DNA of 64,000 nucleotides from assembly GCA_965223325.1 (NCBI GenBank), contig CBDCWI010000002.1:512001-576000 (forward strand), given 5' to 3'. Under the pieces are notes generated by a model. That model was not told where the DNA came from. It made no database searches and worked only from the letters and a program-made list of their open reading frames with translations. Shown piece after piece: positions 30,394 to 55,848 of this stretch; the stretch's first letter is position 1; every line of letters starts with the position of its first letter. The stretch comes from Candidatus Multivoradales bacterium (GTDB lineage Bacteria > Acidobacteriota > Thermoanaerobaculia > Multivoradales > Multivoraceae). The translations under genes were made by a program, and so were the position numbers.

Positions 30394-30402
30394 GGTATTC
30401 CC

Positions 30403-31056: not shown

Positions 31057-31135
31057 GAGCTGCCAGTGAGGGCTTGGGCTTCGTGAGGCCAGAGCCACGA
31101 GCAAACCATCTTCCAAGGGTCCTGCCCCCCGGGTC

Positions 31136-35163: not shown

Positions 35164-35166
35164 CTG

Positions 35167-36483: not shown

Positions 36484-36508
36484 GTCAACACTCCCCAACT
36501 CAACTCTC

Positions 36509-37501: not shown

Positions 37502-38414
37502 GAAACGACTCCAGGTCCTCTTCGTTGATCAACGGCTCTCCCGGCGAAACGTTGTAGAGCTTGCCTTCTCTCACCCAACGATCGAGCCGATCGACCTCGT
37601 GGTAGAGGTGTTCGAAACTGTCGACGACGAACAAGAGGGGCTGCACGTGATCGATCTCGAAGTACTGGTTCACCACCCACTCCAACTTGAAGGGGTAACG
37701 TTGGACGTCGGGCGACAAGAGGCAGTACTCGATTTCTTCCGCCGAGCTCAGAAGTCCCGAACCGTAGACGCAGAGCTCCTCGGAGTCGGGGCGCTTCATC
37801 AAACCGAACTCGACTGTGAACCAGAAGAAGCGTGCCATCGCTTTGATCACCGACTCGACAGCCGCCAGGCGACGGTCGTGGTCTTCGATCTTCTGCAGGT
37901 CGATGGCCGCCGAACGCGCAACGTCACCGAAGCGCACCAGAATGTCTGAGAACACCCGGTCGGTGTGCATCGGCACGTGACCCGAGAGATCATGGAAGAT
38001 GTCGGGCTCCGGCAGGTACTCGAGCCGCTCGCCGGCACGGATGGTAATCGTGGTTGGAAACTCGCGACGCCGGAGGCAGTCGAAGAAGAGATACGCCGGA
38101 ACGTAGCCGCTGACCGGCTTCGACTCGAAGCCCGAAAGCGGCGCAAGGAACTCATTGACCTCCTCGAGACGCGGAATACGCTCCGGGTTGAGCGCCAGTC
38201 GCTCGACTCCCACCAGGAACTGTGGATGGGCGTAGCGCTTCCACTTCTCCTCGAGGGCGGCGTAGAGCCGCCGCCAGGTCTCGTGGTTCTCCTCGCTGTA
38301 GAGCTCGTAGGGCTGTTCGATGAAAAGCTCCCCGCGATTGCGCGACTCTTCGATGAAGGCGGCTTTGGTCGTGGTGAGCCCCTTCGGGGTGCTGCTGGTT
38401 GGAGAGACGGTCAT
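37485..38414 (-). CDS. phhA: Phenylalanine 4-hydroxylase
   Basis: EPDIFHDLSGHVP iron ligands, WFTVEFGL, YGSGLLSS. Confidence 0.92.
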   Translation of the reverse strand: MTVSPTSSTPKGLTTTKAAFIEESRNRGELFIEQPYELYSEENHETWRRLYAALEEKWKRYAHPQFLVGVERLALNPERIPRLEEVNEFLAPLSGFESKPVSGYVPAYLFFDCLRRREFPTTITIRAGERLEYLPEPDIFHDLSGHVPMHTDRVFSDILVRFGDVARSAAIDLQKIEDHDRRLAAVESVIKAMARFFWFTVEFGLMKRPDSEELCVYGSGLLSSAEEIEYCLLSPDVQRYPFKLEWVVNQYFEIDHVQPLLFVVDSFEHLYHEVDRLDRWVREGKLYNVSPGEPLINEEDLESFLDASI

Positions 38415-38456
38415 GCTTGACTCCTCGAGTGCATTCCTTGGACGGGTGATTGCCGC

Positions 38457-39650
38457 TCAGCCGCCGGCGACACGGTCGGCGGACTCATCCGTGTCGTGGT
38501 TCCACGACATGGCGTAGCCGGTGTCCTCCAGGGCGAGGGCGTCACGGGTGAGCTGGAGCGGACGGAAGGTGTCGACCATGACGGCCAGTTCTTCGGTTCC
38601 GGCCTTTCCGATCGAGCCCTCGTAGGTACCCGGATGAGGCCCATGCGGAATGCCGTTGGGGTGCACCGTGAACGATGCCCGTTCGATACCCTTGCGCGAC
38701 ATGAAGTCGCCCTCGACGTAGTAGAGAACCTCGTCACTGTCGACATTCGAATGGTTGTAGGGAGCGGGAATGGCTTCCGGGTGGTAGTCGAACAGGCGCG
38801 GAACGAACGAGCAGATCACGAAACCGGGGCCGTCGAAGGTCTGGTGAACCGGGGGCGGCTGATGGACGCGCCCGGTGATCGGTTCGAAGTCTTCGATGTT
38901 GAAGGCATAGGGCCACAGGTGACCGTCCCAGCCGACGACGTCGAGCGGGTGATGACCGTACTCGTAGCGGGTGATCTGGCCGCGCGCCTTGACTCGCACC
39001 TCGAAGGTTCCTTCTTCGTCGTAGGTCAAGAGTTCCTGCGGGCCGCGGATATCGCGCTCACAGAAGGGTGAGTGCTCGAGGAACTGGCCGTAGCGGTTGA
39101 GGTAGCGCTTGGGCGGCTCGATATGGCCAAACGACTCGATGTGCAACTGGCGTTGCGCCACCCCCTCGTCAGGAAGCAGCCTCCAAATGACACCCGTTGG
39201 GATCACCAGGTAGTCACCCGGGCGATAGTCCAGACGGCCGAACTGGGTCTCGAGAACCCCGGTCCCTTCGTGGATGAAGAGCGTGTCGTCGCCGTGTGCA
39301 AAGCGATACCAGTAGTCCATTGCCGCATCGGGTCGCGACGTGTAGAGAACCACGTCCTGGTTGCCCATCATCGCGACTCGCGAGGAAATCGCATCGCCGC
39401 CGGCCGGCGCTTCTGCGGCACGCAGGTGCCGATGTTTGAGTGCGCCAGCTTCCTCGTACTCGATCGCCACACTCTCCTGCCGGTCGACTTCTCGCACCCT
39501 GGTCGGCGGATGCAGGTGATACAGAATCGATTGGATTCCCGCAAAACCGTGAATGCCCATCACCTCTTCATGGTGCAGAGTGCCGTCGGGCTTTCTGAAC
39601 TGGGTATGACGTTTGTGGGGTACGTTCCCCATGCTCAGGTAGTGGGTCAT
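38457..39650 (-). CDS. hmgA: Homogentisate 1,2-dioxygenase
   Basis: KRHTQFR, HPLDVVGWDG, HQPPPVH, PYNHSNVDSDEVLYY, HGPHPG, AVMVDTF; ATG 39650 with AGGAG RBS. Confidence 0.94.
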   Translation of the reverse strand: MTHYLSMGNVPHKRHTQFRKPDGTLHHEEVMGIHGFAGIQSILYHLHPPTRVREVDRQESVAIEYEEAGALKHRHLRAAEAPAGGDAISSRVAMMGNQDVVLYTSRPDAAMDYWYRFAHGDDTLFIHEGTGVLETQFGRLDYRPGDYLVIPTGVIWRLLPDEGVAQRQLHIESFGHIEPPKRYLNRYGQFLEHSPFCERDIRGPQELLTYDEEGTFEVRVKARGQITRYEYGHHPLDVVGWDGHLWPYAFNIEDFEPITGRVHQPPPVHQTFDGPGFVICSFVPRLFDYHPEAIPAPYNHSNVDSDEVLYYVEGDFMSRKGIERASFTVHPNGIPHGPHPGTYEGSIGKAGTEELAVMVDTFRPLQLTRDALALEDTGYAMSWNHDTDESADRVAGG

Positions 39651-39690
39651 GAACTGTTCTCCTTCTGGAGTCCTGCCATCAAGAGTTCTT

Positions 39691-40791
39691 CTAGAGGTTG
39701 CCGCGCAGAGCCTGGTCGCGCTCGATGCTCTCGAAGAGCGCCTTGAAATTGCCTTCGCCGAAGCCGCGCGCTCCGTGGCGCTCGATGATCTCGTAGAACA
39801 CGGTCGGCCGATCTTCGACCGGGCGGGTGAAGATCTGCAGCAGATAGCCGTCGTCATCGCGGTCGACGAGGATGCCGAGCTCGGCGAGGTCTTCCGTCGG
39901 TTCGTCGATCTTCCCGACCCGCTCTTCGAGGTCGTCGTAGTAGGTGGTCGGAACGTAGAGAAACTCAACGCCGCGCTCGCGCATAGCGCGTACCGTCTTG
40001 ATGATGTCGTCGGTCTGGCAGGCGATGTGCTGCACGCCCGGGCCATCGTAGTAGTCGAGAAACTCTTCGATCTGCGACTTGTTGCGACCCTCGGCAGGCT
40101 CGTTGATCGGAAACTTGATCTTGCCGCTACCGTCCTGCATCACCTTCGACATCAACGCCGAGTACTCGGTCGAGATCGCCTCGTCGTCGAAGTGTGCGAG
40201 CTGCGAGAAACCGAGGCAGTTGGCGAAGAAGTCCACCCAGGCGTTCATCTTGCCGAGCTCGACGTTGCCGACCATGTGATCGATGGTGTGCAGGCCGACA
40301 CCGTTGCCGTTCTCGGTCGCACGCGGTACGAAGCCCGGCGCGAAGACGCCTTTGTACTCGCCCCGCTCGATGAACTTGATCAAGGTATCGCCGTAGGTCT
40401 TGATCGCCGACCAGCAGAGGGTCCCGTGCTCGTCGCTGTCCTCGGTCGTCTCCTGTGCCGACTCGGCGCCACGATCGGTTGCCTGTTCCCAGGAGTGCTG
40501 GGCCGAGTCGACTTCGAGCGCGATGACCTTGACGCCGTCGCCGTGGCGGGCCACGTGACGGGTGATCTCGTGGTCGGGCGAGAGCGCGGTACTCAAGACG
40601 AGGCGCACATCGCCTTGTTGCATCAGATACGAAGCGACCTCTCGCGACCCGGTTTCGAGCCCGCTATAGGCGGCCTCGGTGAAGCCGAAGCTGTGTTGGT
40701 AATACACCGACGCCTGCTTGGCGTTACCGACATAGAACTCGACGTGGTCGAAGCGCTTGATGGGAAGAAAGTCGGAATGGGATTCAGTCAT
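39691..40791 (-). CDS. hppD: 4-hydroxyphenylpyruvate dioxygenase
   Basis: DHMVGNV, GPGVQHIA, LLQIFT, FYEIIER, GFGEGNFKALFESIE. Confidence 0.95.
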   Translation of the reverse strand: MTESHSDFLPIKRFDHVEFYVGNAKQASVYYQHSFGFTEAAYSGLETGSREVASYLMQQGDVRLVLSTALSPDHEITRHVARHGDGVKVIALEVDSAQHSWEQATDRGAESAQETTEDSDEHGTLCWSAIKTYGDTLIKFIERGEYKGVFAPGFVPRATENGNGVGLHTIDHMVGNVELGKMNAWVDFFANCLGFSQLAHFDDEAISTEYSALMSKVMQDGSGKIKFPINEPAEGRNKSQIEEFLDYYDGPGVQHIACQTDDIIKTVRAMRERGVEFLYVPTTYYDDLEERVGKIDEPTEDLAELGILVDRDDDGYLLQIFTRPVEDRPTVFYEIIERHGARGFGEGNFKALFESIERDQALRGNL

Positions 40792-40842
40792 GGAAGAGAC
40801 TCCGGGATTCAGATGGAGTTGGAGCAGTTCTTGTCGAGGAGA

Positions 40843-42123
40843 TCAGTGGGTTTCCAGCTCAGCTTCGACCAGGCGGCCGAGGCGTCGCACGGCGTCTTCG
40901 AGCGCCGCCGGTTCGAGGGTCGAGAAGGAGAGGCGCATCGAGCTTTCGCCAACGCCTGGCCGTGCCGCAAAGGCGTGGCCCGGAATGAACGCGATGCCTT
41001 CGTCTTCGATCGCCTTCTCCACCAGCCGGGCCGACGACATGCAACCGCCACTAACAGTCGGCGGTAGGTCGACCCAGACGAACATGCCAGCCGTTGGCCT
41101 CGACCACACGGTGCCGGCCGGCATGTATCTCTCGAGTGCCGCGAGCATCGCGTCGCGGCGGCCGCGATAGTTCGAACGCAGCATCTCGAGCCGTTGCGAA
41201 AGCGGATGACAGTCGAGCAGGCGGCTCACTGCGCGCTGGGTCAAAGCCGAGCATTCGAGATCGACACCTTCTTTGGCGATCGACAGGCGCTCGGCGAAGC
41301 GATCGGGAACGATCATCCAACCGAGCCGCAAGGCGGGCGCGAGAATCTTCGAGAACGAGCCGAGGTAGAAGGTGTTCTCTGGATCGATGCTTTTTAGCGC
41401 CGGCGCCGCCGGGCCGTCGTAGGTCAAGAGACCGTAGGGATCGTCTTCGACAATCAAAACACCGTGCGCCCGACAGAGCTCAGCGATCGGCTGCCGACGA
41501 TCGGCAGCCAGGCTGACCCCGAGCGGGTTGTGCCCTTCAGGAATCACGTAGAGGAAACGTGGCGCGCGCCCCGTGCCGTCTTTTCTTCCCAGAGCCTGAT
41601 CGAGTGCCGCAACCGAAAGGCCCTGATCGAGATCGGTGGCAACGGTCCGCCGCAGCGCAGCGCGCGGAGCGAGCGCTTGCAGGATGCCGGTGTAGGTCAG
41701 CTCCTCTGTGACCACCGCGTCGCCCTCGTCGACGAGCGCCAGAGCGAGAAGGGCGATTCCCTGCTGGGCACCGGTGGTCAAGAGAATCTGTTCGGGCCGG
41801 CATTCGACGCCGCGCAGCGCCATCACCTCGACGATGTGAGCCAGTAGCTGCGGGTGCACCGGACCGTACTGCAGGGCGCGCCGGTCTTCGGTGAGCACCC
41901 CGGCGAATGCTTCGGCGAGTTCCGCTCCCGGAAACAAGTCGGCTGCCGGCAGGCCACCAGCCATCGACACCACCCCGGGCCGCGACACCAGCGACACCAT
42001 CGACCGCAGGATCGAGCGCTCCTGGGCAAGTAGCCAGGTCGCGAGCTCGGTCTCGGGACGCTCCATCTGTGGAGGGGTCGCGGTCAGAGTGGCGCGCGCT
42101 GTGTCGTTGCCGTGGGTTGTCAC
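40843..42123 (-). CDS. PLP-dependent class I aminotransferase (probable aromatic amino acid transaminase)
   Basis: SMAGGLPA, TGAQQG, HNPLG, EDDPY, GSFSKILAPALRLGW. Start uncertain (GTG 42123 or ATG 42066). Confidence 0.88.
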   Translation of the reverse strand: MTTHGNDTARATLTATPPQMERPETELATWLLAQERSILRSMVSLVSRPGVVSMAGGLPAADLFPGAELAEAFAGVLTEDRRALQYGPVHPQLLAHIVEVMALRGVECRPEQILLTTGAQQGIALLALALVDEGDAVVTEELTYTGILQALAPRAALRRTVATDLDQGLSVAALDQALGRKDGTGRAPRFLYVIPEGHNPLGVSLAADRRQPIAELCRAHGVLIVEDDPYGLLTYDGPAAPALKSIDPENTFYLGSFSKILAPALRLGWMIVPDRFAERLSIAKEGVDLECSALTQRAVSRLLDCHPLSQRLEMLRSNYRGRRDAMLAALERYMPAGTVWSRPTAGMFVWVDLPPTVSGGCMSSARLVEKAIEDEGIAFIPGHAFAARPGVGESSMRLSFSTLEPAALEDAVRRLGRLVEAELETH

Positions 42124-42296
42124 CGGGAAGGTCCTGGGGCGCAAGAAGCGCTGCTGGGGAGGCGATGGACGAAGGGAAAGAGATCCGAAGTGGACAGGCT
42201 GGAGTATAATCGCAACCGCTCGAGCTTTCAAGGTATCTTTTCGCTACTCTCTTCTCGAATCTCGAGTACAAACAGACCTCGACCGAGGCCGCGCAT

Positions 42297-42845
42297 ATGG
42301 TCCAGACCGCCCCCCAGTCCCCTCCCCGATCGATCCGCGAGCCGAAGCCGCCGCGTCGTCGTCTCGACGCTCTCGACCTCGAGATCCTCGACATCCTCCA
42401 GCACGACTCGAGCGTCAGTGCCGCTGAGGTTGCACGACGGGTCGAGCTCTCTCCCGCAGGCCTCCAGAAGCGCATCAAGAAACTCAGCGAGTCGGGAGTC
42501 ATCCGCCGCGAGGTCGCACTGCTCGGGCGCGAGGAGCTCGGCCTCGACCTTCTGTGCTTTGTCCAGGTCGGCCTGGCTCACCACCAACCCGACGCGGTGA
42601 CCGGCTTCCGCCGGGCGGTCGGCACCCTCCCGGCGGTGCTCGAATGCCACCACCTGACCGGTGAATTCGACTACATGCTCAAGATCGTCGCCGCCAACCA
42701 TCGCTCACTGGAGCGCTTTCTGGTCGAGAAGCTCACCCAGATCCCTGGCGTCGACAAAGTGCGAACCTCGATCGTGCTCTCCGAGGTCAAGTCCTCCACC
42801 GCCCTGCCCATGGACGCGGCGCCGCTCGCCAACCACCGGGAGTAG
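42297..42845 (+). CDS. Lrp/AsnC family regulator, divergent from the Phe/Tyr catabolic operon
   Basis: LDALDLEILDILQ HTH, ECHHLTGEFDY, VRTSIVL. Confidence 0.93.
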   Translation: MVQTAPQSPPRSIREPKPPRRRLDALDLEILDILQHDSSVSAAEVARRVELSPAGLQKRIKKLSESGVIRREVALLGREELGLDLLCFVQVGLAHHQPDAVTGFRRAVGTLPAVLECHHLTGEFDYMLKIVAANHRSLERFLVEKLTQIPGVDKVRTSIVLSEVKSSTALPMDAAPLANHRE

Positions 42846-42990: not shown

Positions 42991-45900
42991 ATGCTCGTCT
43001 ACCCTGCCCAAGTCCAACCTCGACTCTCCCGCGCCGCCGCCGCTCTGCCGCTTGCGCCCCTCGTGCTCCTGACCGCTCTGCTCCTTGCGAGTCCGGCCGC
43101 AGCTCAGCTCACTCTCCCCCACACCGAGGGTTTCGAGAGCGCCAACTCGGCGACCTACACGACAGCTCAGAATCCCGTCCCCGGTCTCACCGGGGTCGAG
43201 TTCAAGAAGACCAACAACGCCCGCCTGCGCACCGCTTATACCAGCGGCATCCGCACGGGCAGCCGCTCGATCACCATGGACAGCTCGAGCGGCTACTCAC
43301 GTGGCGACGTGATCGTCAAGCTCGACCTCTCGAACTACACCGGCGGCTGTTCGAGCGTCTCGATCGACTTCTGGTTCCGCGAGTACGCCGACGAGCCCCA
43401 CAGCACGCAGAGCGCCGGCACCAGCAACCCACCACTGGTCGGAGAAACGACCACCACTCCGGCTGACGCCAACGACTGGGTCTACATCCGCGGCTCGAAC
43501 ACAGACGATTGGGTCCTGGCCTACAACTGGGGCGCCTCGGCATCGTCGACTTTCCAGAAAGTCACTCTCAACGTCGGAACGCTTCTGAGCGGTGCATCAC
43601 CGGCACAGAGCATCTCGAGCACCACCGAGCTCATGTTCCGCTGGTACGACAACTCCGGCGTCACCGGCGATGGTGTCGCCTTCGACGACATTACGGTCAC
43701 CGAAACCAACACCTGTAGCACGCTCTCTGGCCGCGTTGGCATCGACGGCAAGTCGGGCGGCTTCGGCGTGCTCGGTTCATCCGATGCCGAGTTCCCGGCC
43801 TCCGTTCAGCTCGAGCTCCAGGACGGCGTCTGCGCCCCTGCGGTCAACTGCCCGACGACGACCACCAACAGCAGTGGTGCCTATAGCTTTCCCAACCTTC
43901 TGACCGGCACCTACACCATCGACGTTCGTGACACCGACATTCCTCTCGGCTTCGTTCTCGAGCCTGGCACGACCTCGGTCGGCGCCACCGCTGAGCCCAT
44001 GACGTCCATCTCGGTCACCAATCCGACCAACAAGACGATGAACTTCGCCTACGTGCCGACCGCGCCATCCTTGCCCTTGAAGGAAGGCTTCGAGGGCGCC
44101 GGCAATGACACCTATACGGCCTTCACCAATCGGCTGGCTGGCCTCTCGAACGTCTACTTCGGCGACGAAGACGGCACCTCAGTCGGCCGACTGCGCACCG
44201 CGGTCGGTTCGGCCTTCTACCACGGTGGCGATAACGCCGCGACCGTCGACACCACGACCGGGTCAATTGCCGACACCGAGGTCATTCTCTCCTACGACCT
44301 CTCGGCCTTCGACACCGCGACCGACACGGTGATGCTCGAGTTCTGGTGGATGGACCACGCCGACGAGAACAACTGGCCCGAGTTCGTCTCGTTCCGCGCC
44401 TCGTCGAACGCCAACTGGTCGCAGATCTACGATCGGGGCGTGAACTCTCAGGACACCTCCCCTCCAGCCAACATCGCGCCCAACGACGGTATCTGGCAGC
44501 AGGTCACCGTCGACCTGACGGCCAACCACCTCTCGCCGGTCTCGGGGGCACCAAGCAACTTCACCAAGTCATTCCAACTGCGTTTCCACCAGCGGGACAA
44601 CGCACAGACCACCTCGACCACTGGCGGCGACGGCGTCACCTGGGACGACATCTGCATCTACCTGCAGGGAGGCGCCGACTGCTCGGGTTCTGAGATTGGC
44701 AACCGCATTTGGAACGATCTCGACGGCGATGCAGTCGACGATCCGGGGGAACCTGGCATTCCGGGCCTCACCGTCACCCTGCGTGACGACGCCGGCAACC
44801 AACTCGATCAGACCACGACCGACGCCCAGGGCGCCTACAGCTTCATCACCTCGTTGACCGGCACCTTCAGAGTCGTCATCACCCCTCCGGCGGGTGCCAA
44901 CAACACTTCCGATCCCGACGGTGGCATCTGCACCAGCCAGCAGCAGCTCGGCGTTTGCGACCACGAAACCACTCTCACCATTGCCGCTCCCGGCGAGGTC
45001 CACACCGATCGCGACTTCGGCTATCTGTTCACCGGTTCGATCGCCGGTACGGTGCTCGACGATCGAGACGGCGACACGGTGGCCGATCCCGGCGAAGGCG
45101 GAATCGCCGGCCTGACCGTCGAACTGCGCCAGGGAGCGGTCGTCCATCAGGTCACCACCACCGATGCCAACGGCGACTACTCCTTCGTCAGTGTCGGCCC
45201 GGCGACCTGGACCACCGTCATCACCACCGCTCCGGCTGGCGCTACGCCAACCTTCGACCCCGACGACGCCAGCGCTCCGGTTTCGACCGCCCACCAGTCG
45301 GTCTACACCCTGCCGTTCGGCCAACAGAAGTCGGCGTACGATTTCGGCTACCAGTATCAGGGCTCGATCTCGGGTCGCCTTTGGGACGACCAGGACGCCA
45401 ACCAGGTCCAGAACGGCGCCGAGCCCGGAATCGTCGGTGCAACGTTGACGTTGAAGAACGGTGCTGACACCCACCTCATCGTCACCACCGATGCCAACGG
45501 CGACTACTCGTTCACGGCGATTCCAGGCGCAACCTGGGATGTGATCGTCACCCGCCCCCCTGGAGGTCTGGCAACCTTCGATCCCGACGCGACTCTCGAC
45601 AACCAGACGCAGATCGTCCTGGCAGCTGGCGGCACGTCGACCGCACAGAACTTCGGTTACGACATCGCACCGGCGATTGGCGGTCGGGTCTGGAACGACA
45701 CCAACCAGAACGGCATCGTCGATAGTGGCGAAGCCGGCTATGACGGAATCGACCTCGAACTGCGCGACGGCACCTGCACGCCCGGCACCAACTGCCCGGT
45801 CGAAACCACCGCCGGCGGAGGCTTCTACGAGTTCCGCGGCCTCTCCGCCGGGATCGCGTACGTCATTCTCATCGACGAGTGCACGCTACCGATCTCGGGT

Positions 45901-48900
45901 GTTCTCACCACCAGCAACGTGCCCTACAACAGGACCCTGGCAGCCAACGAGATCGTGGGTGACGCGAACTTCGGCTATCGCGCCCAGACCCTGCCGGTCG
46001 TCGAGGGCTTCGAAGGGGCTCTCGATCGGCAGGCGCAGTACACCGCCAACAGCTGTGTGCGCGGCGCACCGGGCTTCGACTTCGCTCACGACAATGTCGG
46101 CCGCCTCCGTCTACAGGCCGGCGAAGACTTCAACACCAGTCATCCGGAAGCCTGGAAGCGGGCACGCTACTACTATCGCAACGGGCTCGCCTCGGCGCTT
46201 CTCGATACCGCCACTGGCGGCCAGGTGTCACAGAACGACTTGACCCTGTCGCTCGACCTCTCCGACCTGGCGCTCGCCTCGGACGAGCTCCTCCTCGACT
46301 ACAGCGTCTTCGATCACAGCGACGAAGGAGCGGCCGGCGATAAGGTCGAGATGCGCGTCGGCACGATGGCCGCCGGTCTGTGGGTGGAAGTCGAAGACTG
46401 GGGCGCGGCTGACCGTAACGAAGTCTGGACTGACGTTGCGAACCTGAACCTCTCGCAGGTTCTGCGTGACTACAACACCGCCAACGGAACCTCCCACGAT
46501 TTCGACTCCGGCTTCCAGGTCCGCTGGCGTCAGGTCGACAACAACCCGGCGACCCAGCCCTCGTGGAGTGACGGGTTGTCGGTCGACGACATCTGGCTGC
46601 GCCTGGGTACAGGCACGGCCCACCTGGGGGGCCAGGTCTGGAAGGATCTCGACAACGACGTCACGCTCGACCCCGGCGAAGGCGCGCCGTGCCTCCTGGT
46701 CGAGCTCTATGACGACACCAACGGTAACGGAGTCCTCGACGGCGTCGAGGGGAACACCGTCCTGCGAACGAGTACCGCGGCCGCCGACGGCTCCTACGAG
46801 TTTCCGGCTCTCGCCGCCGGCGACTACCTGGTCGACATCAACTCCGACTATCTGCCCCACCAGACGAATGTAGTCGGTGCACCCTTTGCTACGACCTTGA
46901 GCGCCGGTCAGCAGGTGACCGCCAGCAACATCGAGCTTTCGGGCCGCGTTGTCCTGCCCTACTCACAGGGCTTCGAAGACGCCACGGATCGGGTCTACTT
47001 CGGCGACACGGATTGCCTCAACGGTCTGCCCGACTTTTCGTTCAGCGAGCCCGACACGCCGACTACGGTCGGCTACGGGCGCGTCAACTTCATTCACTCC
47101 GCTGCCCACGTCAAGACCGGCAACCGCGCCGCAACCCTCGACGGCGGCCCGTTCTCGAGCCTCGACGACGAGGAAGAGCTCATCCTCACCCTCGACATGA
47201 GCAACTACGACATCACCATGCCGGTCACCCTGGACTTCCAGATGATGCCGCACTCGCCGTTCGGCTCATCGTTCATGCAGGAGGCCAAGGTCTTCATCCG
47301 CGGCTCGAAGAGCGACGCCTGGCTCGAGCTCTACGACCTCGAGAACACCCGCACCACAAACGATCAGGGCACCTACAAGCTCTACAGCGCCCTCGACCTG
47401 TCCGACACGCTGTGTACGGGCGCAGGCGCTTCGTCGCCCTGCAACTCTTCCTCCCCGGTGCAAGACTTCAGCAGTTCCTTCCAGATCAAGTGGTGGGGCT
47501 CGCAGGATCTCCATGCCGAGGTGACCTACAACGATCGCCAGGGCGGCTACTCCATCGATGACATCACGATCAATGGTCCTGGCGCCTCAGTCATCGGCGA
47601 CATGATCTACAACGATCTCGACGGCGATTCCACCCGCGATGCCGGCGAGCCGGGTATCCCGGGCCTTTCGGTGCTGGTCAAAGATTCGAACGGCGACATC
47701 GCCGCCACCGACACGACCGCTGCCAACGGCTCATACCAGCTGTCGGTGTCGGGGCTTGGCAACCACACGATCGAAGTCACTCCACCAGCCGGAGCGACCC
47801 CCACCGAAGATCCCGACGGCACGGGCACGCCGAACAAGTCGGTCTACAACGTGCCCTTCCAGGGCTCCTTCACCGACGCGCAGGACTTCGGCTACCAATT
47901 CAGCGGCTCGATCGCCGGCAAAGTCTTCCAGGACGCCAACGGTAACGGCACGCAGAACGGCGTCGAGCCCGACTGGAGCGGTCTTACGGTGGAGCTTCGC
48001 CAGGGCGCTACGACCTATTTCACCACCACTACCAACGGTTCGGGAGCCTACTCCTTTACCGGCCTCAGTCCTGCTACCTGGACGGTGGTCGTTACTCGAC
48101 CTACCGGCACGATTCCAACCGTCGATCCCGATGGCATAGCGACCCCCGACGCCTACGACGTCGCACTCGCCGCATCACAGGCGGTAAGTGGCGCCACCCT
48201 CGGCTATCGCTACAACGGTTCGATCGGCGGCTACCTGTGGAGTGACGACAACCTGGACGGCGTCCAGGATCCCGGTGAGGACCCGCTCGTCGGCCTCGAA
48301 GTCGAGCTCCAGGACGGCGCCAGCAACCCGATCGGGGTCGCCCAGACCTCGGCCACCGGGGCCTACCTCTTCGAGCACCTACCGCCCAACGGCTACATCC
48401 TCCTCGTCGCCCCGCCGCCCGGCTTCCTGCCGACCTGGGACCGCGACGGGTCGCCCGACAACACGACGGCAGTGGCGCTCGGCGCCGGTCAGACTGTTCA
48501 GGACGCCGACTTCGGCTACCAGACGCCGGAACTGGTCGGTACCGTTTACCACGACGTCGATGGCAACGGCTCGTTTGGCGCCGGTGACGTGACTCTCGCC
48601 AACGTCGACCTGACCCTCCTCGGGCCGGGCTGCAACCCTTGCAGCGCGACAACCGACGGTTCAGGCGACTACCGTTTCGCCGGCATCGCGCCGTCGAACT
48701 ACTCGCTCAATGTCGACCTCGACACTGTTGTCCTGTCGGGCCAGCCGAAACCGAAGAACCCGGGCGCCCTGCCGGCCACCATAACGCTCGCTCCGGGTAG
48801 CAACACCCAGAATGTTGGCTTCGAGGCCGAGGACCTCCCCGGTGTGACATGCACCACCGACAACGACTACTACTACGACTTCACCGGCATCCAGAACATG

Positions 48901-51900
48901 ACCTACGGCAGTGGCGCCGGGCCCTTCAGCGGCACGATCATCGGCGCACCGGATTGGAAGTGGGAGACCGAAGATCAGTCGGTCCCCGGCTGGTCGTACA
49001 GCGATGGCCGCATCTTCACCGGCGAAAACGCCATCATCGATCGCGACGGCTCCGATCCGATCCAGGCGATCACCTTGCATTCGCAGGGGTGGGCCAGCAA
49101 GTGGGTGACCCTCCAGCTCGACCTGTCGCCCCTGGGCTCCTCCGACCTTCTACTCGACTTCAGCTGGACCGACCACGGCGACGACGCCACCTGGGATGAC
49201 CGACTCGAGGTGCGCGGCACGACCAGCGACCCGTGGATCCGGGTACAGAACTTCTACCCCGAGCGTAACCCCGACGATCAGTGGATCGACTTCGCAGACA
49301 TCAACCTGGCCAGCTTCCTCGAGGCCAATGGCCAGTCCCCAGGCGCGACCTTCCAGCTCCGTTTCGGCCACCGTGGACAGTATCTCGCGGCTCTCGGCAC
49401 CGGCTACGACGGCACGACGATGGACAACGTCTGTCTGCGCACCGGCAACGTTCCTGATACCGGTGATCTGATCGGCTTCGTCTTCCGCGATTACGACGCC
49501 GACGGTGAACGCGACGATGACGAGGCGCCCTACGCTGGCGTCGAGATCGAGATCACCGGCCCCGGCTGCTCTCCCTGCACGCGCACCACCGACGAAGGCG
49601 GCCGCTATACCTTCGAGGACCTGACGCTGGGAAACTACACGCTCAACGTGACCTCGGTTCCCGGCGGCGGCATCCAGACCAAGGCTCGCCGCGCGCCGAC
49701 CAATGTCGTCGTTCGCGGTGGCATCAGCACGGTTCAGGACTTCGGTTTCCAGTCGACCCTCGCCTTCACCGAAAACACGGTGATGACGGCCAAGTCAAAG
49801 GCGATCTGGTTCGTCGACCCGACCACCGGATCGGCGCGCAAGGCGACCGACACAATCGTCGAGGGGATCAACTCGCTGGCCGCGAACCCCAACAGCTGCC
49901 AGGTCTACTACGGAGTCGACAAGAGCCTCTATCGCTGGGACGTGATCTCGGACACGCACCACCTCATCAGCGATCTGGGCGTCGACTACGCCGGAACCTT
50001 TACCGGCCAGAACCTCGACTCTTCTGGGGCCACCTACTGGCCGCCAACCGACACGCTCTACCTGGGCGCCGAGGGTGGTCCAGCCGGTTCGTTCGATGCC
50101 GAAGGGATCTACAAGATCACCATGGGCTCTGGAGGTACGGCGATCACCAGCCTCACGCGGATCGATATCCAGAACATCGCCGCGACCGATCCCGAGACCC
50201 CGCATTCGCCCGTTGGCGGCTTTGGTGACTTCGTTGCCTTCGACAACGGCAGCGGCGGTGTGCGCCTCTTCGGTTCGACGCAGAACAACAACCCCAAGGA
50301 AATCTATTGGTGGACCTACGACGACGCCTCGGGAGACTACGTCCACCTGCGGACCCTTGGTGGCGGCTCCAAGATGTACCAGCTCGGTCGTACACCGAGC
50401 GGCACGATCTTCTCGGGTCAGTCCTACATCTTGCAACGCATGTCGCCGGTCGACGGCACCCTGCTCGGTGACCCGATCGAGGTTCCGGCCACCTTCCACA
50501 TCAACGACATGACCGGTTTCATCAGCGGCTGCCTGGCACAGATTGGTTCTGCCAAGCGCGTCGTCACGGGCCCCACGAACAACGGAGACGGCACCTGGAC
50601 GGTCGGCTTCCGCGTACGGGTCGAGAACCACGGCGTCTCCAACCTGTTCGACGTCCAGCTCGCCGACACCCTGGATGTCGAGTTCGGCACCCACGTTGTT
50701 GGTGTGCCGGCCGCCCCGGGTCAGTACACCGTATCGGCGGCACCGAACCTTTCCGCCACCAGCGGCGGCGCGGTGCTCACCGCCAACGCCGCTTTCGACG
50801 GCTCGGGTGACCAGAACCTCTTGACCTTGAACGGCGGTGACAGCCTGCCGATCGGCGCGACCGCGGATGTCGACTTCAGCATCCGCTTCTTCCCCGTGAC
50901 CACCAAGTCGGTGTTCTACAACCAGGTGCTGGCGGCCGCCGACACCGCCGAGAACGGCACCACCGAGGGAGAGACCGACGATCTCTCGGACAACGGTGCC
51001 GACCCCGATCCCGGTGACGGCTCGGGTGGCGCGGCCAACGACAACCCCGAGGACTCGGACGAGGACGACCCGACTCCGGTAGCCATCAACACCGGCTATG
51101 ACCTGGCAATGACCTACACGTACGTCTCGGATACGTCCCTCGACGGCATTTCGAACGACGCCCGGGCACGCTCGGGTGATGAGATCACGTTCATGGTGAC
51201 GCTCATCAACCAGGGCACCACCGCGGTGACCAACCCGGTTCTGCGCGCCTATGTCGACTCGTCGTTGTTCGCCAACTTCCGACTCGGCGACAACCCCAAC
51301 GCGGCGACTGGCGGCACGCACTCCATCCCCTACACGTGGGCGGTCTCGGGTGGCCACGGGCTGGTGACTCTCAACGGCTCACTGCCCGGTGGCGGCTCGG
51401 TCACCCTTCCCGTCACCCTGACGTTGACTTCCAACGCGCAGGGCACCAAACGCGCCTACGTCGAGGTCTACTCGGACAACGGCGCCGACGTCGACTCGAC
51501 GCCCGAGAGCGAAGAGCTCAACAACAACGGCGATCCCTTGGTCCTTGGTGTGACCGACGGCACCGGCGGCGATGAGGACGACCACGACGCCTCAGAGTTC
51601 GTCATCCCGGGCGGCGGTATCGGCGACTTCATCTGGCATGACATCAACAACAACGGCTCCCAGAACGGCTCCGAGCCGGGGATTGGTGGCGTGACGGTTC
51701 GCCTCTATCGCGACGACGGGACGACCCCGGGTGTGCTCGATGGCGGCGACACCCTCATCGCCACAACCGTCTCGGACGGCAACGGCGGCTACGCCTTCTT
51801 CGGACTCGAAGAGGCGACCTACATCGTCGATCCAGATGAGACCACCATGTCTCCGGGCTTCAGCCCGAGCTTCGGTGCGACCGGGGTCAGTGGTCCAATC

Positions 51901-54900
51901 GTCCTGGTCGCCGACACGTTCAACGACACGGTCGACTTCGGCTACACCAATGCCGGCTCGAGCGCGATCGGCGACTTCGTCTGGTACGACACCGACGGCG
52001 ACGGCGAGCAGGATCCGGGCGAAATCGGCTTCAAGAACATCGGCGTCGGGGTGACCGGGCCGGGCGGCTACAACCAGGCAACCACGACCGACTCTGCCGG
52101 CCTCTACCTGGTCACCGGTGTGACCCAGAGCGGTACCTACACGGTGACCATCAACACCGCCAGCCTGCCGGCAGGCGTCAACCCCGTGCCGACCAACCAG
52201 CCCTCGGCGAGTGCTCCCCACAACGTGCTCAACCCGCAGGACTACCTGCGCGCCGACTACGGCTTCAACGGCGGCAACCCCGGCACCATCGGCGACCTGG
52301 TCTTCCGTGACCTCGACAACGACGGCGTGCGCGACGTCGGCGAGCCGGGTATAGGCAACGTCACCGTCGACCTGACGGATGGCAGCGGAGTCCACATCGC
52401 CACCACCACCACCGCCGTCGACGGTTCCTACGACTTCTCCGGCGTTTTCCCCGGTACCTACCAGGTTGTCGTCACCGACACCAACGGTGCGCTCTTCGAC
52501 GTGCAGTTGTGTGCCGGCTCGAGCCCGACGGGCAACATCGGCCTACTGGCGGGTCAGGACTACAACGGCGCTGACTTCGGGTACTGCCCGAACGAGGAAG
52601 GCCTGATTGGCGACCTGGTCTTCCATGATCAGGACGGTGACGGGTTCTTCGATCCGGATGAGAGTGGTATCGAGCTCGTCGAGCTCGAACTGTGGCGTGA
52701 CGAGAACAACGACTGCATCCTGCAGGAAGGCTTCGACACGCTACTGCGGACGACCAAGACCGACGAAATCGGCCGCTATCGCTTCCAGGTCCTCGATACT
52801 CCCGAGGACTACCTGGTGCGTCCGATTGTCACTCAACCGGTCCTGGCACCAATGACGCAGACGATCGGCAGCATCGGCTCTGACGAGTACGGTCAGCCCT
52901 CGCCCTACTGTGCCCAGCTGACACTCGCCAGTCCCACGAGGATCGGTGCTGACTTCGGCTTCCGCACCGCCGCCGGCCTCTTGATCTCGGGCACCGTCTT
53001 CAAGGACGCCGAAGCCAACGGTGTCTACGAACCGCAGGTTTCCGACGAGCCGGTACCCAACGCCACCGTGACTCTCTACCGCGACCTCAACAGCAACGGC
53101 GAGATCGACGCCGAGGATCCGCGCTTCGGCCAGGTGATTACACCTGCCAATGGCTACTACGCCTTTACCTCACTGCCGGGCGGCACCAAGTGGATCGTCA
53201 CCTCGCAGGTGACCAACACCGTGGTCTCCGGAGGCGTACAGACCACCCAGACCACGACTGGCGGCAAAGAGCCGGTCGAACTCCAGCCAGTGCGCAACAG
53301 CACCGGTCACGACTTCGGCTACACCACCTCCCCCACCCTCGCCCTGATCACCAGCTTCAAGGCGTATGACGAGGGCGATGTGGTCGTCGAATGGACGACT
53401 TCGAGTGAGCTCGGCACCCTCGGCTTCCAGCTCTATCGCACCAGCGGTGGCGAGTGGGTGCCGGTCGGTGACTACGTCGCTTCGCCGGGTGAGCCTCTCG
53501 GCGCAACCTACCGCGTCGCTGATCCAGGCGCTTCGACATCCGGCATGCTCGAATACGCCCTGGTCGAGGTTGAACCGCGCGGCGGCAGTCGCACCTACGG
53601 CCCGTTCCAGGTCTTCGCCCAGAACGCCGGCCGCTCGGCCGGAACGGCGCTCGGCGCCACGGCGCGGCCGCGCACCGGGATCCACCTCGACCGTCAGCAG
53701 GCACGGCGCGTCGAGGCACGACGTCCGCTCGAAAACCCGAACGAGGTCGGCACCGCCCTCAAGATGACCGTCCTGGGCGGCGGGGTCTACTCGGTGAGTG
53801 CGGCGACGATCGCCGACGGTTTGGGGATTCCGCTGGATCGAGCAGAGGACTGGATTGCTCAGGGTCTGTTCCGCCTTCGCCGCGACCTGCGGGTCGTCGA
53901 CTGGTGGAGCAACGACGGTACGTCCATTCAGTTCTACGCCCCGGAGGCCAATAGCCTCTACACCGCAAACGTCGATGTCTACCTCGAGCAGCTCTCGGGC
54001 CGCACCGCCAGAGCGCAGCTCCTGCAACCGGTCGCTCCCGTCGATGGCAGTACCTTCCTCGCCAATGTGCGCCAGGAAGACGACGTCTTCGGTGCTACCG
54101 CTGCGGCACGCTCGGCGACCGAAGAATTCTGGTTCTGGCGCGTGCTCGGCACGTTCGGCAACTTCCGCTCGACCACCATCGACTTCGATCTGCGGCACCA
54201 CACCGGTGAGGGCCCCGCAAGCGTCGAGGTCTCGGTGTTCGGTGCAACCGACTCGGAACGTTTGATCGACCACAGCTTCAACCTCTTCCTCAACGATCGC
54301 TTGATCGACACGGTGGAATGGAGCGGCGCTGGTCATCGCCAGTTCGCCTTCGATGTCGCGGGCAGTGATCTGCTCGAGTACGGCAACGAGCTTCGAATCG
54401 AGGCCGAGATTCCGACTGGCATCGGAATTGGCGTCTTCTACCTCGACGCCGTCGAGATCACCCACGAACGGGATCTGATGGCCGAAAACGGGCAGCTCGA
54501 GTTCTTCGCTGACGAGCCAGTCTCGACGATCACGGGCTTTGACAGTCAGTCGGTCCAGGTTCTCGACATCACCGACCGCTACCGTCCGATTCGAATCGGC
54601 GGAGCAACGGTCGACTACCAGAACAGCTACCGCGTCACCTTCCCGCCGACGGCTGGACACACCTACCTTGCGACCGAAGCCAGCGCAGTGGAGAACGTCA
54701 CCGCGACACCCATCACGCCACTACAAACGGCGGGTGCCGAGTACGTCGTCGTCGCTCCACGTGAACTCTCCGCGGCGGCAGAACGGCTGGCAGATCTGCG
54801 CCGTGCCCGCGGTCTCACCGCCGAGGTCTACGCAGTCGAAGACATCTACGACGGCCTCTCTGGCGGCATCGAAGATCCAGAGGCCATCCACGGCTTCCTC

Positions 54901-55848
54901 GAGAACGCCTGGGTGACCTGGGATACCAAGCCGCGCTTCGTTGCGCTCGTCGGTAAGGGCACCTTCGACTACGAAGACACCAAGGGCCTCAACTCCAACC
55001 TGATTCCGCCGCCCCTCGTCGCGTCAGCCAGCGGTCTGTTCTCTGCCGACCGCATCATTGGCGACGTCGTCGGCGACGATCTCAGGCCGGAAGTTGCGGT
55101 CGGTCGCATCCCCGTTCTCACCGAGGCTGAGCTCGACGCCTACATCGACAAGCTGGCACTCTGGGAAAGCGGTCAGAACTCCGGTTCGAACCGCATCACC
55201 CTGGTCGCGGACAACCCTGACAACGCCGGTAACTTCAGCGAGACCCTCGATGTCTTAGAAGGCACTCTCCAGTCGAGCCACGAGGCCAACCGCATCGAAC
55301 TCGCCGAACTCGGCCTGGTCGAAGCCAAGAGTCGCCTCCAGGCGGCCTTCAACGAAGGGTCCTTCCTGGTCTCCTACGCCGGCCACGGCGGTCTCGACCG
55401 CATCGCGGCAGAAGGCATGATGACGCTCTCAGACCTCGGGTCACTGACCGCCAGCGGCCAGATCCCGATCGTCTCGGCGATGACCTGCACCCTCAACCGC
55501 TTCGAGGTCCCGGGCTTGACCTCGCTCGGTGAGGCGTTGGTCCTCGACCCCGACGGCGGCGCGATCGCAGTCTTCGCACCGTCGGGCCTGTCCGAGAACC
55601 TGGCAGCCCAGGACCTCGGCGAGCAACTCCTCGAGGAGATCCTCAGCGGCGGCGCCGAGACTCTCGGTGAAGCGGTCCTCGCGGGACTTCACAGTGGCGA
55701 CGTCAACCCGAAACGCCTCACCTCATACACCCTCCTCGGCGACCCGGCGCTCGTGCTTCCCGAGCAGGTGATCGATGAGGAACCCGATGTCCTGTTCGAA
55801 GACGACTTCGAAAGCGGCTCAGTAGCCAACTGGATCACCCGGCCCTGA
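42991..55848 (+). CDS. Giant secreted adhesin-like protein (~4,285 aa): MAM/cleaved-adhesin-like modules, ~16 SdrD-B-like repeats, DUF11-like domains, C-terminal peptidase C25 (gingipain/PorU-like)
   Basis: Signal peptide ..SPAAA-Q; repeated IGD.(V/I)W.D.DGDG..DPGEPGI; C25 motifs EYVVVAP, VAVGRIP, YAGHGG (His 55384), MTC (Cys 55486), LLGDP; GAGG RBS before ATG 42991. Confidence 0.9.
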   Translation: MLVYPAQVQPRLSRAAAALPLAPLVLLTALLLASPAAAQLTLPHTEGFESANSATYTTAQNPVPGLTGVEFKKTNNARLRTAYTSGIRTGSRSITMDSSSGYSRGDVIVKLDLSNYTGGCSSVSIDFWFREYADEPHSTQSAGTSNPPLVGETTTTPADANDWVYIRGSNTDDWVLAYNWGASASSTFQKVTLNVGTLLSGASPAQSISSTTELMFRWYDNSGVTGDGVAFDDITVTETNTCSTLSGRVGIDGKSGGFGVLGSSDAEFPASVQLELQDGVCAPAVNCPTTTTNSSGAYSFPNLLTGTYTIDVRDTDIPLGFVLEPGTTSVGATAEPMTSISVTNPTNKTMNFAYVPTAPSLPLKEGFEGAGNDTYTAFTNRLAGLSNVYFGDEDGTSVGRLRTAVGSAFYHGGDNAATVDTTTGSIADTEVILSYDLSAFDTATDTVMLEFWWMDHADENNWPEFVSFRASSNANWSQIYDRGVNSQDTSPPANIAPNDGIWQQVTVDLTANHLSPVSGAPSNFTKSFQLRFHQRDNAQTTSTTGGDGVTWDDICIYLQGGADCSGSEIGNRIWNDLDGDAVDDPGEPGIPGLTVTLRDDAGNQLDQTTTDAQGAYSFITSLTGTFRVVITPPAGANNTSDPDGGICTSQQQLGVCDHETTLTIAAPGEVHTDRDFGYLFTGSIAGTVLDDRDGDTVADPGEGGIAGLTVELRQGAVVHQVTTTDANGDYSFVSVGPATWTTVITTAPAGATPTFDPDDASAPVSTAHQSVYTLPFGQQKSAYDFGYQYQGSISGRLWDDQDANQVQNGAEPGIVGATLTLKNGADTHLIVTTDANGDYSFTAIPGATWDVIVTRPPGGLATFDPDATLDNQTQIVLAAGGTSTAQNFGYDIAPAIGGRVWNDTNQNGIVDSGEAGYDGIDLELRDGTCTPGTNCPVETTAGGGFYEFRGLSAGIAYVILIDECTLPISGVLTTSNVPYNRTLAANEIVGDANFGYRAQTLPVVEGFEGALDRQAQYTANSCVRGAPGFDFAHDNVGRLRLQAGEDFNTSHPEAWKRARYYYRNGLASALLDTATGGQVSQNDLTLSLDLSDLALASDELLLDYSVFDHSDEGAAGDKVEMRVGTMAAGLWVEVEDWGAADRNEVWTDVANLNLSQVLRDYNTANGTSHDFDSGFQVRWRQVDNNPATQPSWSDGLSVDDIWLRLGTGTAHLGGQVWKDLDNDVTLDPGEGAPCLLVELYDDTNGNGVLDGVEGNTVLRTSTAAADGSYEFPALAAGDYLVDINSDYLPHQTNVVGAPFATTLSAGQQVTASNIELSGRVVLPYSQGFEDATDRVYFGDTDCLNGLPDFSFSEPDTPTTVGYGRVNFIHSAAHVKTGNRAATLDGGPFSSLDDEEELILTLDMSNYDITMPVTLDFQMMPHSPFGSSFMQEAKVFIRGSKSDAWLELYDLENTRTTNDQGTYKLYSALDLSDTLCTGAGASSPCNSSSPVQDFSSSFQIKWWGSQDLHAEVTYNDRQGGYSIDDITINGPGASVIGDMIYNDLDGDSTRDAGEPGIPGLSVLVKDSNGDIAATDTTAANGSYQLSVSGLGNHTIEVTPPAGATPTEDPDGTGTPNKSVYNVPFQGSFTDAQDFGYQFSGSIAGKVFQDANGNGTQNGVEPDWSGLTVELRQGATTYFTTTTNGSGAYSFTGLSPATWTVVVTRPTGTIPTVDPDGIATPDAYDVALAASQAVSGATLGYRYNGSIGGYLWSDDNLDGVQDPGEDPLVGLEVELQDGASNPIGVAQTSATGAYLFEHLPPNGYILLVAPPPGFLPTWDRDGSPDNTTAVALGAGQTVQDADFGYQTPELVGTVYHDVDGNGSFGAGDVTLANVDLTLLGPGCNPCSATTDGSGDYRFAGIAPSNYSLNVDLDTVVLSGQPKPKNPGALPATITLAPGSNTQNVGFEAEDLPGVTCTTDNDYYYDFTGIQNMTYGSGAGPFSGTIIGAPDWKWETEDQSVPGWSYSDGRIFTGENAIIDRDGSDPIQAITLHSQGWASKWVTLQLDLSPLGSSDLLLDFSWTDHGDDATWDDRLEVRGTTSDPWIRVQNFYPERNPDDQWIDFADINLASFLEANGQSPGATFQLRFGHRGQYLAALGTGYDGTTMDNVCLRTGNVPDTGDLIGFVFRDYDADGERDDDEAPYAGVEIEITGPGCSPCTRTTDEGGRYTFEDLTLGNYTLNVTSVPGGGIQTKARRAPTNVVVRGGISTVQDFGFQSTLAFTENTVMTAKSKAIWFVDPTTGSARKATDTIVEGINSLAANPNSCQVYYGVDKSLYRWDVISDTHHLISDLGVDYAGTFTGQNLDSSGATYWPPTDTLYLGAEGGPAGSFDAEGIYKITMGSGGTAITSLTRIDIQNIAATDPETPHSPVGGFGDFVAFDNGSGGVRLFGSTQNNNPKEIYWWTYDDASGDYVHLRTLGGGSKMYQLGRTPSGTIFSGQSYILQRMSPVDGTLLGDPIEVPATFHINDMTGFISGCLAQIGSAKRVVTGPTNNGDGTWTVGFRVRVENHGVSNLFDVQLADTLDVEFGTHVVGVPAAPGQYTVSAAPNLSATSGGAVLTANAAFDGSGDQNLLTLNGGDSLPIGATADVDFSIRFFPVTTKSVFYNQVLAAADTAENGTTEGETDDLSDNGADPDPGDGSGGAANDNPEDSDEDDPTPVAINTGYDLAMTYTYVSDTSLDGISNDARARSGDEITFMVTLINQGTTAVTNPVLRAYVDSSLFANFRLGDNPNAATGGTHSIPYTWAVSGGHGLVTLNGSLPGGGSVTLPVTLTLTSNAQGTKRAYVEVYSDNGADVDSTPESEELNNNGDPLVLGVTDGTGGDEDDHDASEFVIPGGGIGDFIWHDINNNGSQNGSEPGIGGVTVRLYRDDGTTPGVLDGGDTLIATTVSDGNGGYAFFGLEEATYIVDPDETTMSPGFSPSFGATGVSGPIVLVADTFNDTVDFGYTNAGSSAIGDFVWYDTDGDGEQDPGEIGFKNIGVGVTGPGGYNQATTTDSAGLYLVTGVTQSGTYTVTINTASLPAGVNPVPTNQPSASAPHNVLNPQDYLRADYGFNGGNPGTIGDLVFRDLDNDGVRDVGEPGIGNVTVDLTDGSGVHIATTTTAVDGSYDFSGVFPGTYQVVVTDTNGALFDVQLCAGSSPTGNIGLLAGQDYNGADFGYCPNEEGLIGDLVFHDQDGDGFFDPDESGIELVELELWRDENNDCILQEGFDTLLRTTKTDEIGRYRFQVLDTPEDYLVRPIVTQPVLAPMTQTIGSIGSDEYGQPSPYCAQLTLASPTRIGADFGFRTAAGLLISGTVFKDAEANGVYEPQVSDEPVPNATVTLYRDLNSNGEIDAEDPRFGQVITPANGYYAFTSLPGGTKWIVTSQVTNTVVSGGVQTTQTTTGGKEPVELQPVRNSTGHDFGYTTSPTLALITSFKAYDEGDVVVEWTTSSELGTLGFQLYRTSGGEWVPVGDYVASPGEPLGATYRVADPGASTSGMLEYALVEVEPRGGSRTYGPFQVFAQNAGRSAGTALGATARPRTGIHLDRQQARRVEARRPLENPNEVGTALKMTVLGGGVYSVSAATIADGLGIPLDRAEDWIAQGLFRLRRDLRVVDWWSNDGTSIQFYAPEANSLYTANVDVYLEQLSGRTARAQLLQPVAPVDGSTFLANVRQEDDVFGATAAARSATEEFWFWRVLGTFGNFRSTTIDFDLRHHTGEGPASVEVSVFGATDSERLIDHSFNLFLNDRLIDTVEWSGAGHRQFAFDVAGSDLLEYGNELRIEAEIPTGIGIGVFYLDAVEITHERDLMAENGQLEFFADEPVSTITGFDSQSVQVLDITDRYRPIRIGGATVDYQNSYRVTFPPTAGHTYLATEASAVENVTATPITPLQTAGAEYVVVAPRELSAAAERLADLRRARGLTAEVYAVEDIYDGLSGGIEDPEAIHGFLENAWVTWDTKPRFVALVGKGTFDYEDTKGLNSNLIPPPLVASASGLFSADRIIGDVVGDDLRPEVAVGRIPVLTEAELDAYIDKLALWESGQNSGSNRITLVADNPDNAGNFSETLDVLEGTLQSSHEANRIELAELGLVEAKSRLQAAFNEGSFLVSYAGHGGLDRIAAEGMMTLSDLGSLTASGQIPIVSAMTCTLNRFEVPGLTSLGEALVLDPDGGAIAVFAPSGLSENLAAQDLGEQLLEEILSGGAETLGEAVLAGLHSGDVNPKRLTSYTLLGDPALVLPEQVIDEEPDVLFEDDFESGSVANWITRP

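Follow-up and report, generated by a model that had tools for sequence, protein, structure and literature searches.

We analyzed a stretch of DNA of 64,000 nucleotides from Candidatus Multivoradales bacterium (Acidobacteriota, Thermoanaerobaculia; GenBank assembly GCA_965223325.1, contig CBDCWI010000002.1, positions 512,001 to 576,000 of the forward strand), hereafter the window, in which one open reading frame (ORF), at 42991-55848 (+), encodes a protein of 4,285 amino acids (aa; P0001). In this protein an adhesin-like passenger is followed by a small domain at the end of the passenger, which we call the junction domain, by a C25 peptidase module resembling PorU, and by an acidic C-terminal tail. 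The adhesin-C25 fusion is no singleton; it is one of eight paralogues in its genome and a member of a large family present in several phyla. In the parts of the literature that were covered, no C25 sortase other than PorU is described, and PorU is linked to Bacteroidota's type IX secretion system (T9SS). By analogy with PorU, the gene could be a fused cassette of cargo, signal and sortase; it would cut in cis close to Thr3449 and then either pass the adhesin on or set it free, a reading to which we give an even chance. The junction domain and the split cassettes found in relatives favour the idea of a cis-acting sortase, although this support is indirect.

The junction domain (aa 3447-3545; 53329-53625 (+)), predicted to be an all-beta sandwich and a candidate sorting signal, was overlooked along with the acidic tail (aa 4266-4285) in a preliminary description of this DNA made from its letters alone. 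The domain, about 100 aa long, was found in 134/134 long homologues, 470-587 aa upstream of the catalytic domain; the 134 are those of the best 150 representatives in which 560 aa or more precede the catalytic domain, the 16 shorter ones being uncounted. At E<1e-8 it was present in all 23 of the compared relatives that have C25 and absent from the 17 that lack it; one C25-free genome gave a junction-profile match at 1.2e-5, above that cut. Conservation upstream of the domain does not exceed 0.85 bit and rises to 3.9 bit at Thr3449 (53335-53337), a residue kept in 95% of 141 sequences and in 64/65 of another set. The residue lies in the first strand (aa 3448-3459; 53332-53367 (+)), which conservation and the order of the structural model mark as the predicted cleavage zone. 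In an AlphaFold model of aa 3424-4260 built with 65 sequences (predicted local distance difference test, pLDDT, 92.1; predicted template modelling score, pTM, 0.92), the first 23 residues are disordered and order begins at Pro3448/Thr3449, and the junction domain and the peptidase are predicted to form one unit, with the junction domain placed against the peptidase. We obtained no NCBIfam match for the junction domain and no Pfam family common to its members; in PDB only titin FN3 domains were retrieved, non-significantly, and its nearest clusters in the Atlas were unnamed. A weaker Atlas match (0.88) led to Bacteroidota proteins which also bear a T9SS C-terminal domain (CTD).

In relatives some C25 proteins stand alone, with a length of about 790-950 aa (1,243 as read in one case). 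Across 12 regions inspected we found a stand-alone C25 in 11 and a fused gene in one; a small exported junction domain is the product of the gene immediately downstream in 9 of these 11 stand-alone regions. These small copies match the junction profile only from position 8-22, that is, after or late in the first strand, and about 6 of 10 strand-less copies have, by eye, lipoprotein-like signal peptides. Secreted proteins nearby end in P-V-E-L-x-x-F-x-I-D/E, a tag that can be aligned with strand one of the fused domain. With 0 control matches, the strict tag pattern was detected in 10/40 relatives; all 10 belong to the 13 in which the small strand-less domain was found, and the 27 others lack the tag. 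Tags were seen in 2 of 200 genomes sampled from the phylum; the newly seen G194, with 5 tags, encodes immediately behind its C25 gene a lipoprotein-like domain that is strand-less (E 7.7e-41), and G174, of the same family, has no tag and no small domain and carries the fused gene only. The genome of the window has neither tag, strand-less domain nor stand-alone C25 as separate genes, all parts being fused. Judging by sequence and gene context, the C-terminal strand of the cargo would complete the beta-sandwich of its strand-less partner. Cargo, Ig-like domain and PorU-like enzyme stand in one chain here and as split pieces in relatives; on the simplest account the completed domain would be the signal and the enzyme would act at the cargo boundary. 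By fusion the reaction would come to run in cis and the gene would suffice by itself, in keeping with the patchy spread across phyla.

The type V pili of Bacteroidia are a donor-strand system, and the split form is alike in that a C-terminal strand would complete a partner sandwich with C25 nearby; the fold and the partners are different, however, and in the window strand and acceptor form a single uninterrupted domain. Strand complementation alone could also anchor cargo, given the lipoprotein-like signals of the strand-less copies, and this speaks for an alternative in which the junction domain is an uncut docking or latency unit and the enzyme acts in trans, for example by cross-linking neighbouring fibres or matrix, with the tagged cargo of the split form tethered non-covalently to a lipoprotein. 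The model, in which junction and peptidase make one ordered unit, suits this alternative as well, as does the report, in the accessible portions of the literature, that extra elements keep gingipains and PorU latent. The fused form is, however, already covalently tethered and yet conserves the strand and the Thr, and there is no evident trans substrate; we regard docking as unlikely.

Several further loci show how variable the split arrangement is. Small secreted proteins bearing the tag (open frames of 160-330 aa) were observed at L108:6123-7597 (-), at L104:7839-8753 (+) and in L112-L123, several of their genes lying less than 10 kb from a stand-alone C25. Exported proteins of 476-517 aa ending in a divergent strand-less junction domain are encoded at L107:5050-6477 (-) and L108:4538-6088 (-), directly downstream of tag-bearing genes, and at L105:7970-11117 (+) a stand-alone C25 lies between two strand-less junction-domain genes. 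In a cultured strain of Chloroflexota, Haur_5106 of the Herpetosiphon aurantiacus plasmid pHAU01 (L124:13504-16077 (+)) is a stand-alone C25 beside VirB4-like genes; it forms a long branch in the C25 tree, and no junction domain was found in it or in the three neighbours tested.

We then compared the module with characterized C25 proteins. The catalytic domain (aa 3915-4260; 54733-55770 (+)) is complete, as had been claimed, covering positions 1-374 of the Pfam profile PF01364 (clan CD) with 231.9 bits (E 1.8e-68) against a cut-off of 23, and the His at 55384 and the Cys at 55486 picked out in the preliminary description are His4132 and Cys4166, a dyad that falls, when aligned, on the GHG motif and the C motif which PorU and RgpB have. 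In sequence ranking PorU came first (E 1.1e-34), ahead of RgpB (6e-14) and Kgp (1e-5), and Foldseek likewise placed PorU first over about 800 columns, with the gingipains at about 370; the earlier suggestion of a PorU-like region thus holds over the whole length of the module. The N-terminal domains of PorU are present ahead of the catalytic domain (aa 3588-3914; 53752-54732 (+)), with the LKMTV and GGVYSV motifs found as claimed at aa 3590 and 3597 and with a CBM6/35/36-like jelly roll within them (about aa 3688-3828; fold matches of Z 10-11). In VIA-align the model and latent PorU share 549 aligned residues (Z 18.0, root-mean-square deviation, rmsd, 6.2). PorU 6ZA2 residues 37-789 align to model residues 162-835, past the junction domain, which had no counterpart in this alignment, though a whole-model fold search barely probes that part. 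The C-terminal domains of PorU and its type A CTD are missing, the chain ending about 25 aa past C25 with no TIGR04183 match, and the scores fall short of the equivalog models, with 210 bits for PorU NF033707 (cut-off 420; true PorU scores 1170) and 114 bits for PorU2 NF052324 (cut-off 450). In contrast to PorU, the module is fused behind its own cargo, and its Ig-like domain follows the cargo directly, in the position that the CTD takes in PorU substrates. A 50-row tree separated the fused proteins (35 rows, support 95/85), the stand-alone proteins (11 rows, 100/100) and PorU (2 rows, 100/100); unrooted and without Rgp/Kgp rows, it bears on the phylogeny proposed in the preliminary description with respect to PorU. 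The protein is a PorU-like member of the C25 family and is neither PorU nor a gingipain.

The likeness to gingipains RgpB and Kgp (PDB 1CVR, 4IEF, 4RBM) lies in the catalytic fold and in the union of protease and adhesin modules in one chain. The caspase-haemoglobinase fold of gingipain type was recovered in the predicted model with Z 38.6 for RgpB (rmsd 2.2, 318 aligned) and 35.1 for Kgp. Gingipains, however, have the prodomain and catalytic domain first, then adhesins, and a CTD last, whereas here the order is reversed and the CTD is lacking; only the catalytic domain aligns, at a lower sequence score, and there is no clear equivalent of Asp163. This residue of RgpB is the S1 aspartate for Arg/Lys specificity in the accessible part of PMC4357240. 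The profile alignment sets conserved Phe4082/Ser4083 at its place, although loop alignment can shift, and an Asp stands at 4085 in 39/65 family sequences, where the 4,285-aa protein has Thr. The close fit of the catalytic domain to active gingipains speaks for another explanation, namely that a general extracellular protease, the C25 module, is carried on an adhesin stalk and serves feeding or matrix remodelling, the junction being its first structural domain. Membrane-anchored members of the family exist, and the jelly-roll-like modules of the passenger, whose nearest Atlas clusters are unnamed, lean next to Cleaved_Adhesin (0.91, a lead only), as in protease-adhesin polyproteins. A stalked protease would leave unexplained the free strand tag on small proteins, tied as it is to a strand-less domain beside C25, and also the near-invariant Thr at the cargo boundary and the PorU-type N-terminal domains. 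We consider it unlikely. Fold matches of the model also included GPI (glycosylphosphatidylinositol) transamidase (Z 9.6) and the asparaginyl ligase OaAEP1 (Z 10.4), which are cut-and-transfer enzymes of clan CD. Caspase-like domains autoprocess some large surface proteins, according to the accessible part of PMC3482391, and the MARTX cysteine protease domain (CPD, family C80) of clan CD similarly sits inside a giant secreted protein and cuts the chain that bears it (PMC4357240, PMC3482391, in part); these autoprocessing domains belong to other families, however, and here the cargo is adhesin-like, no toxin domain was found and there is a dedicated signal domain.

The eight C25 genes of the genome encode proteins of 1.35-4.6 thousand aa with C25 at the C-terminal end, both His and Cys in 8/8, and different cargoes on the different paralogues. 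At E<=1e-30 the module profile retrieved 9,822 representatives, among which there will be PorU-type proteins. Among the best 150, the chain ends within 15 aa of the last motif in 103 and within 45 aa in 140, and both catalytic residues were seen in 149. Inactivity of the peptidase, which would leave the module a structural role, is very improbable, for His is conserved in 65/65 and Cys in 64/65 sequences at about 35% identity. Passengers reach 5,374 aa and include ice-binding, RTX-type and DUF11 domains. In the best 80 of 165 confirmed stretches, 66/79 related loci bear titles of Acidobacteriota or its sub-taxa, Thermoanaerobaculia for the most part, and the remaining 13 those of Nitrospirota, Chloroflexota, Verrucomicrobiota, Kiritimatiellia, Lentisphaerae, CSSED10-310 and Pseudomonadota. 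An assembly artefact as the source of the fusion was rejected on the strength of the eight paralogues and 134 homologues. A protein identical to the 4,285-aa product exists in a public collection; the homologue search (1,468 candidates scored) gave 7 proteins, none with a name, and a single-sequence locus search gave no match. We found no description of such a fused cassette in the literature covered, which did not extend to subscription papers and supplements. Some members carry C-terminal extensions of 125-978 aa beyond C25 (P0069, P0143, P0146, P0017 and P0008, the first two of the same kind), which are possibly other lineage-specific sorting domains.

The absence of a T9SS CTD noted in the preliminary description was borne out by an NCBIfam scan of the protein, with a CTD model (TIGR04183) that does recognise the CTD of true PorU. 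The genome (6.69 Mb, 98.2% complete) gave no match for PorV in a family search whose positive control was detected, nor in tblastn with a real PorV; SprA, GldM, GldN and CTD were without genome matches too, in family searches whose controls were silent, and PorK, PorL, PorZ and PorQ were not searched. These searches and the taxonomy of the related loci reject a Bacteroidota host with T9SS, in agreement with the earlier placement outside that phylum. The search for secretion genes suggested at the same time was answered in part, in that a cluster resembling a type II secretion system (T2SS) was found. The genome holds two secretins, one in this cluster (G000:C2:3237113-3249046, with secretin, ATPase, platform protein and pseudopilin-like genes) and one in a pilMNOPQ-like operon (C2:3876790-3882572); the gene names are those we presume from sequence and order. 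Export is likely by Sec plus a route other than T9SS, and the T2SS-like cluster, a candidate, possibly serves as that route.

The acidic tail (55786-55845 (+)), of the L-F-x-D-[DG]-F-E-S-G-x4-W type, is a second element shared within the genome. Its motif stands at the C-terminal end of 84-87 ORFs, against 2-5 internal matches, and among the longer tail ORFs an N-terminal hydrophobic stretch was found in 43/61 (1,287/4,218 in other ORFs). Four tail proteins have twin-arginine-like N-termini, and both Sec and Tat (twin-arginine translocation) cargo seem to carry the tail; by eye it resembles the first strand of the protein's own jelly-roll-like modules. It occurs on 7 of the 8 C25 paralogues, as PorU bears its own CTD, and in 20/23 C25-positive against 2/17 C25-negative relatives, which would suit a scheme where the eight fusions are trans-acting sortases for the ~85 proteins with the F-x-D-x-F-E tail. 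This scheme is improbable. The tail is found without C25 in G006 and G008, and C25 without the tail in G004, G031 and G034; ten double negatives come from one genus, only 11 of the 150 best representatives have the tail, and eight giant, differently loaded copies would be an odd design for a housekeeping sortase. The small number of tailed representatives and the imperfect co-occurrence also led us to reject the tail as an obligatory signal of the module, and we treat it as a lineage-specific address label. Elsewhere in the family the chains end differently.

In the mechanism we favour, the conserved ~840-residue module (junction, PorU-like N-terminal domains and C25) would act as a sortase for the cargo to which it is fused. 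Once the protein is exported, the end of its cargo would be kept against the peptidase by the junction domain, and Cys4166/His4132 would cut at or just before the junction's first strand, near Thr3449; the acyl-enzyme would then be resolved either by an amine acceptor at the cell surface, which takes over the cargo, or by water, which releases it, the acidic tail being a separate address label. We infer cleavage, its site, the transpeptidation and the acceptor from PorU, which, in the accessible parts of PMC10202324 and PMC4804311, cuts just before a folded Ig-like signal domain and passes the cargo to anionic lipopolysaccharide (A-LPS), to other amines or to release. Cleavage by the module may go either way in our estimate; given cleavage, transfer would be the rather more probable outcome.

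Several observations weigh against this mechanism. The relatives are kin, so the co-occurrence counts rest on non-independent samples. The likeness of tag and strand is modest, with 11/13 in the top 5% of background and 6/13 in the top 1%, for tags chosen by a pattern that itself fixes V, L and F, and the Thr of the tag, which precedes the Pro, is not invariant. The high pTM is silent on the docking site of the junction domain, and covariation between junction and peptidase is at noise level (best z 4.3; mutual information with average product correction, MI-APC, 205 rows, effective number, Neff, 188); the pair Leu3450-Glu4202 (z 4.0, rank 49) amounts to no more than a lead. Taken by itself, the catalytic domain gives a better superposition with RgpB/Kgp than with latent PorU. 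In the tree, the stand-alone clade falls on the side of PorU, and the separation of stand-alone and fused clades is indicative that the split form is a cousin and not the direct ancestor. The lack of PorV and the members from Chloroflexota imply an acceptor that is not generally A-LPS. One family member has a MYXO-CTERM membrane anchor above the cut-off, which would make re-anchoring redundant there, and such separate membrane anchors weaken self-anchoring as the sole purpose.

The rest of the gene agrees largely with the preliminary description. The frame at 42991-55848 is open, with alternative in-frame starts upstream at ATG 42985 and TTG 42937, and export is predicted from a Sec signal peptide at aa 1-38 (43104 being its last position; AAA/Q cleavage read from the sequence), the sole strongly hydrophobic stretch of the protein (19-aa mean hydropathy 2.28 at aa 15). 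A module search and a check of the sequence agree with the five interleaved jelly-roll-like modules that had been proposed: the first is at 43105-43707 (+) (aa 39-239), and the other four, 25-35% identical to it, are at 44062-44667, 45982-46608, 46945-47580 and 48826-49446 (+) (aa 358-559, 998-1206, 1319-1530 and 1946-2152). Four of the five start with LPxxE/QGFE, all end in D(D/N)(I/V), and no PDB match was obtained for them by sequence. The SdrD-B-like repeats, put at ~16, number 16 by a self-built profile and 16 stretches in four pieces by Pfam; repeats 1-11 (43717-49767 (+)) alternate with modules 2-5, and repeats 12-16 (51613-53328 (+)) close the variable passenger. From their DxDxD motifs they would bind calcium. 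The block at aa 2260-2520 (49768-50550 (+)), earlier called propeller-like, did not live up to that name, having no Pfam match, no internal repeat and no homologue among the genome's own ORFs or stored proteins. It is followed by two beta-rich blocks (50551-51606 (+)), where the plural DUF11-like domains of the earlier account reduce to one, the second block (aa 2721-2838; PF01345 E 4.7e-7, TIGR01451), the first being without a Pfam match. Between junction and PorU-like domains is a linker (53626-53751 (+)) of variable length, 45-154 aa with a median of 58 in 65 sequences.

Neighbouring genes were considered as part of the system and rejected, these being for aromatic amino-acid catabolism, an Lrp regulator and a thiamine pyrophosphate (TPP) enzyme. 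The stretch at 29197-42845 of the window holds an ordinary phosphate/polyphosphate operon (Na/Pi cotransporter, PhoU, mutase fusion, Ppx) as well as aromatic amino-acid catabolism genes and the Lrp regulator, all unrelated to the adhesin. A match to Group II intron domain D1-D4 lies at 636-854 (-) (RF02005, 180.6 bits). Elsewhere in the genome, tandem secreted proteins of 6,044 and 3,698 aa, the first ending in a hydrophobic tail, are followed by RHS-core-like fragments (G000:C2:2026280-2055507 (-)).

Thousands of C25 sequences outside the T9SS setting are usually taken as degradative 'gingipains'. As one chain here unites the cargo, a candidate signal domain and a PorU-like enzyme and has its boundary at Thr3449, a C25 role outside T9SS becomes testable. 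Recognition of a folded signal domain by an enzyme of the PorU type is an open question in the accessible part of PMC11285876, and the gene could give a simple model for it. In its fullest form, which we put forward only tentatively and think doubtful, the gene would be a portable one-gene system in which any cargo placed ahead of the Thr strand would undergo, through its own PorU-like sortase and without T9SS, cleavage in cis and covalent attachment to surface or matrix; in the split form a ten-residue donor strand would bring cargo to the enzyme by way of a strand-less adaptor. If true, this would be a new cis-acting anchoring mechanism in at least eight phyla and possibly a self-ligating tag. 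A cis-acting sortase would account for the display of giant adhesins by uncultured Acidobacteriota and others.

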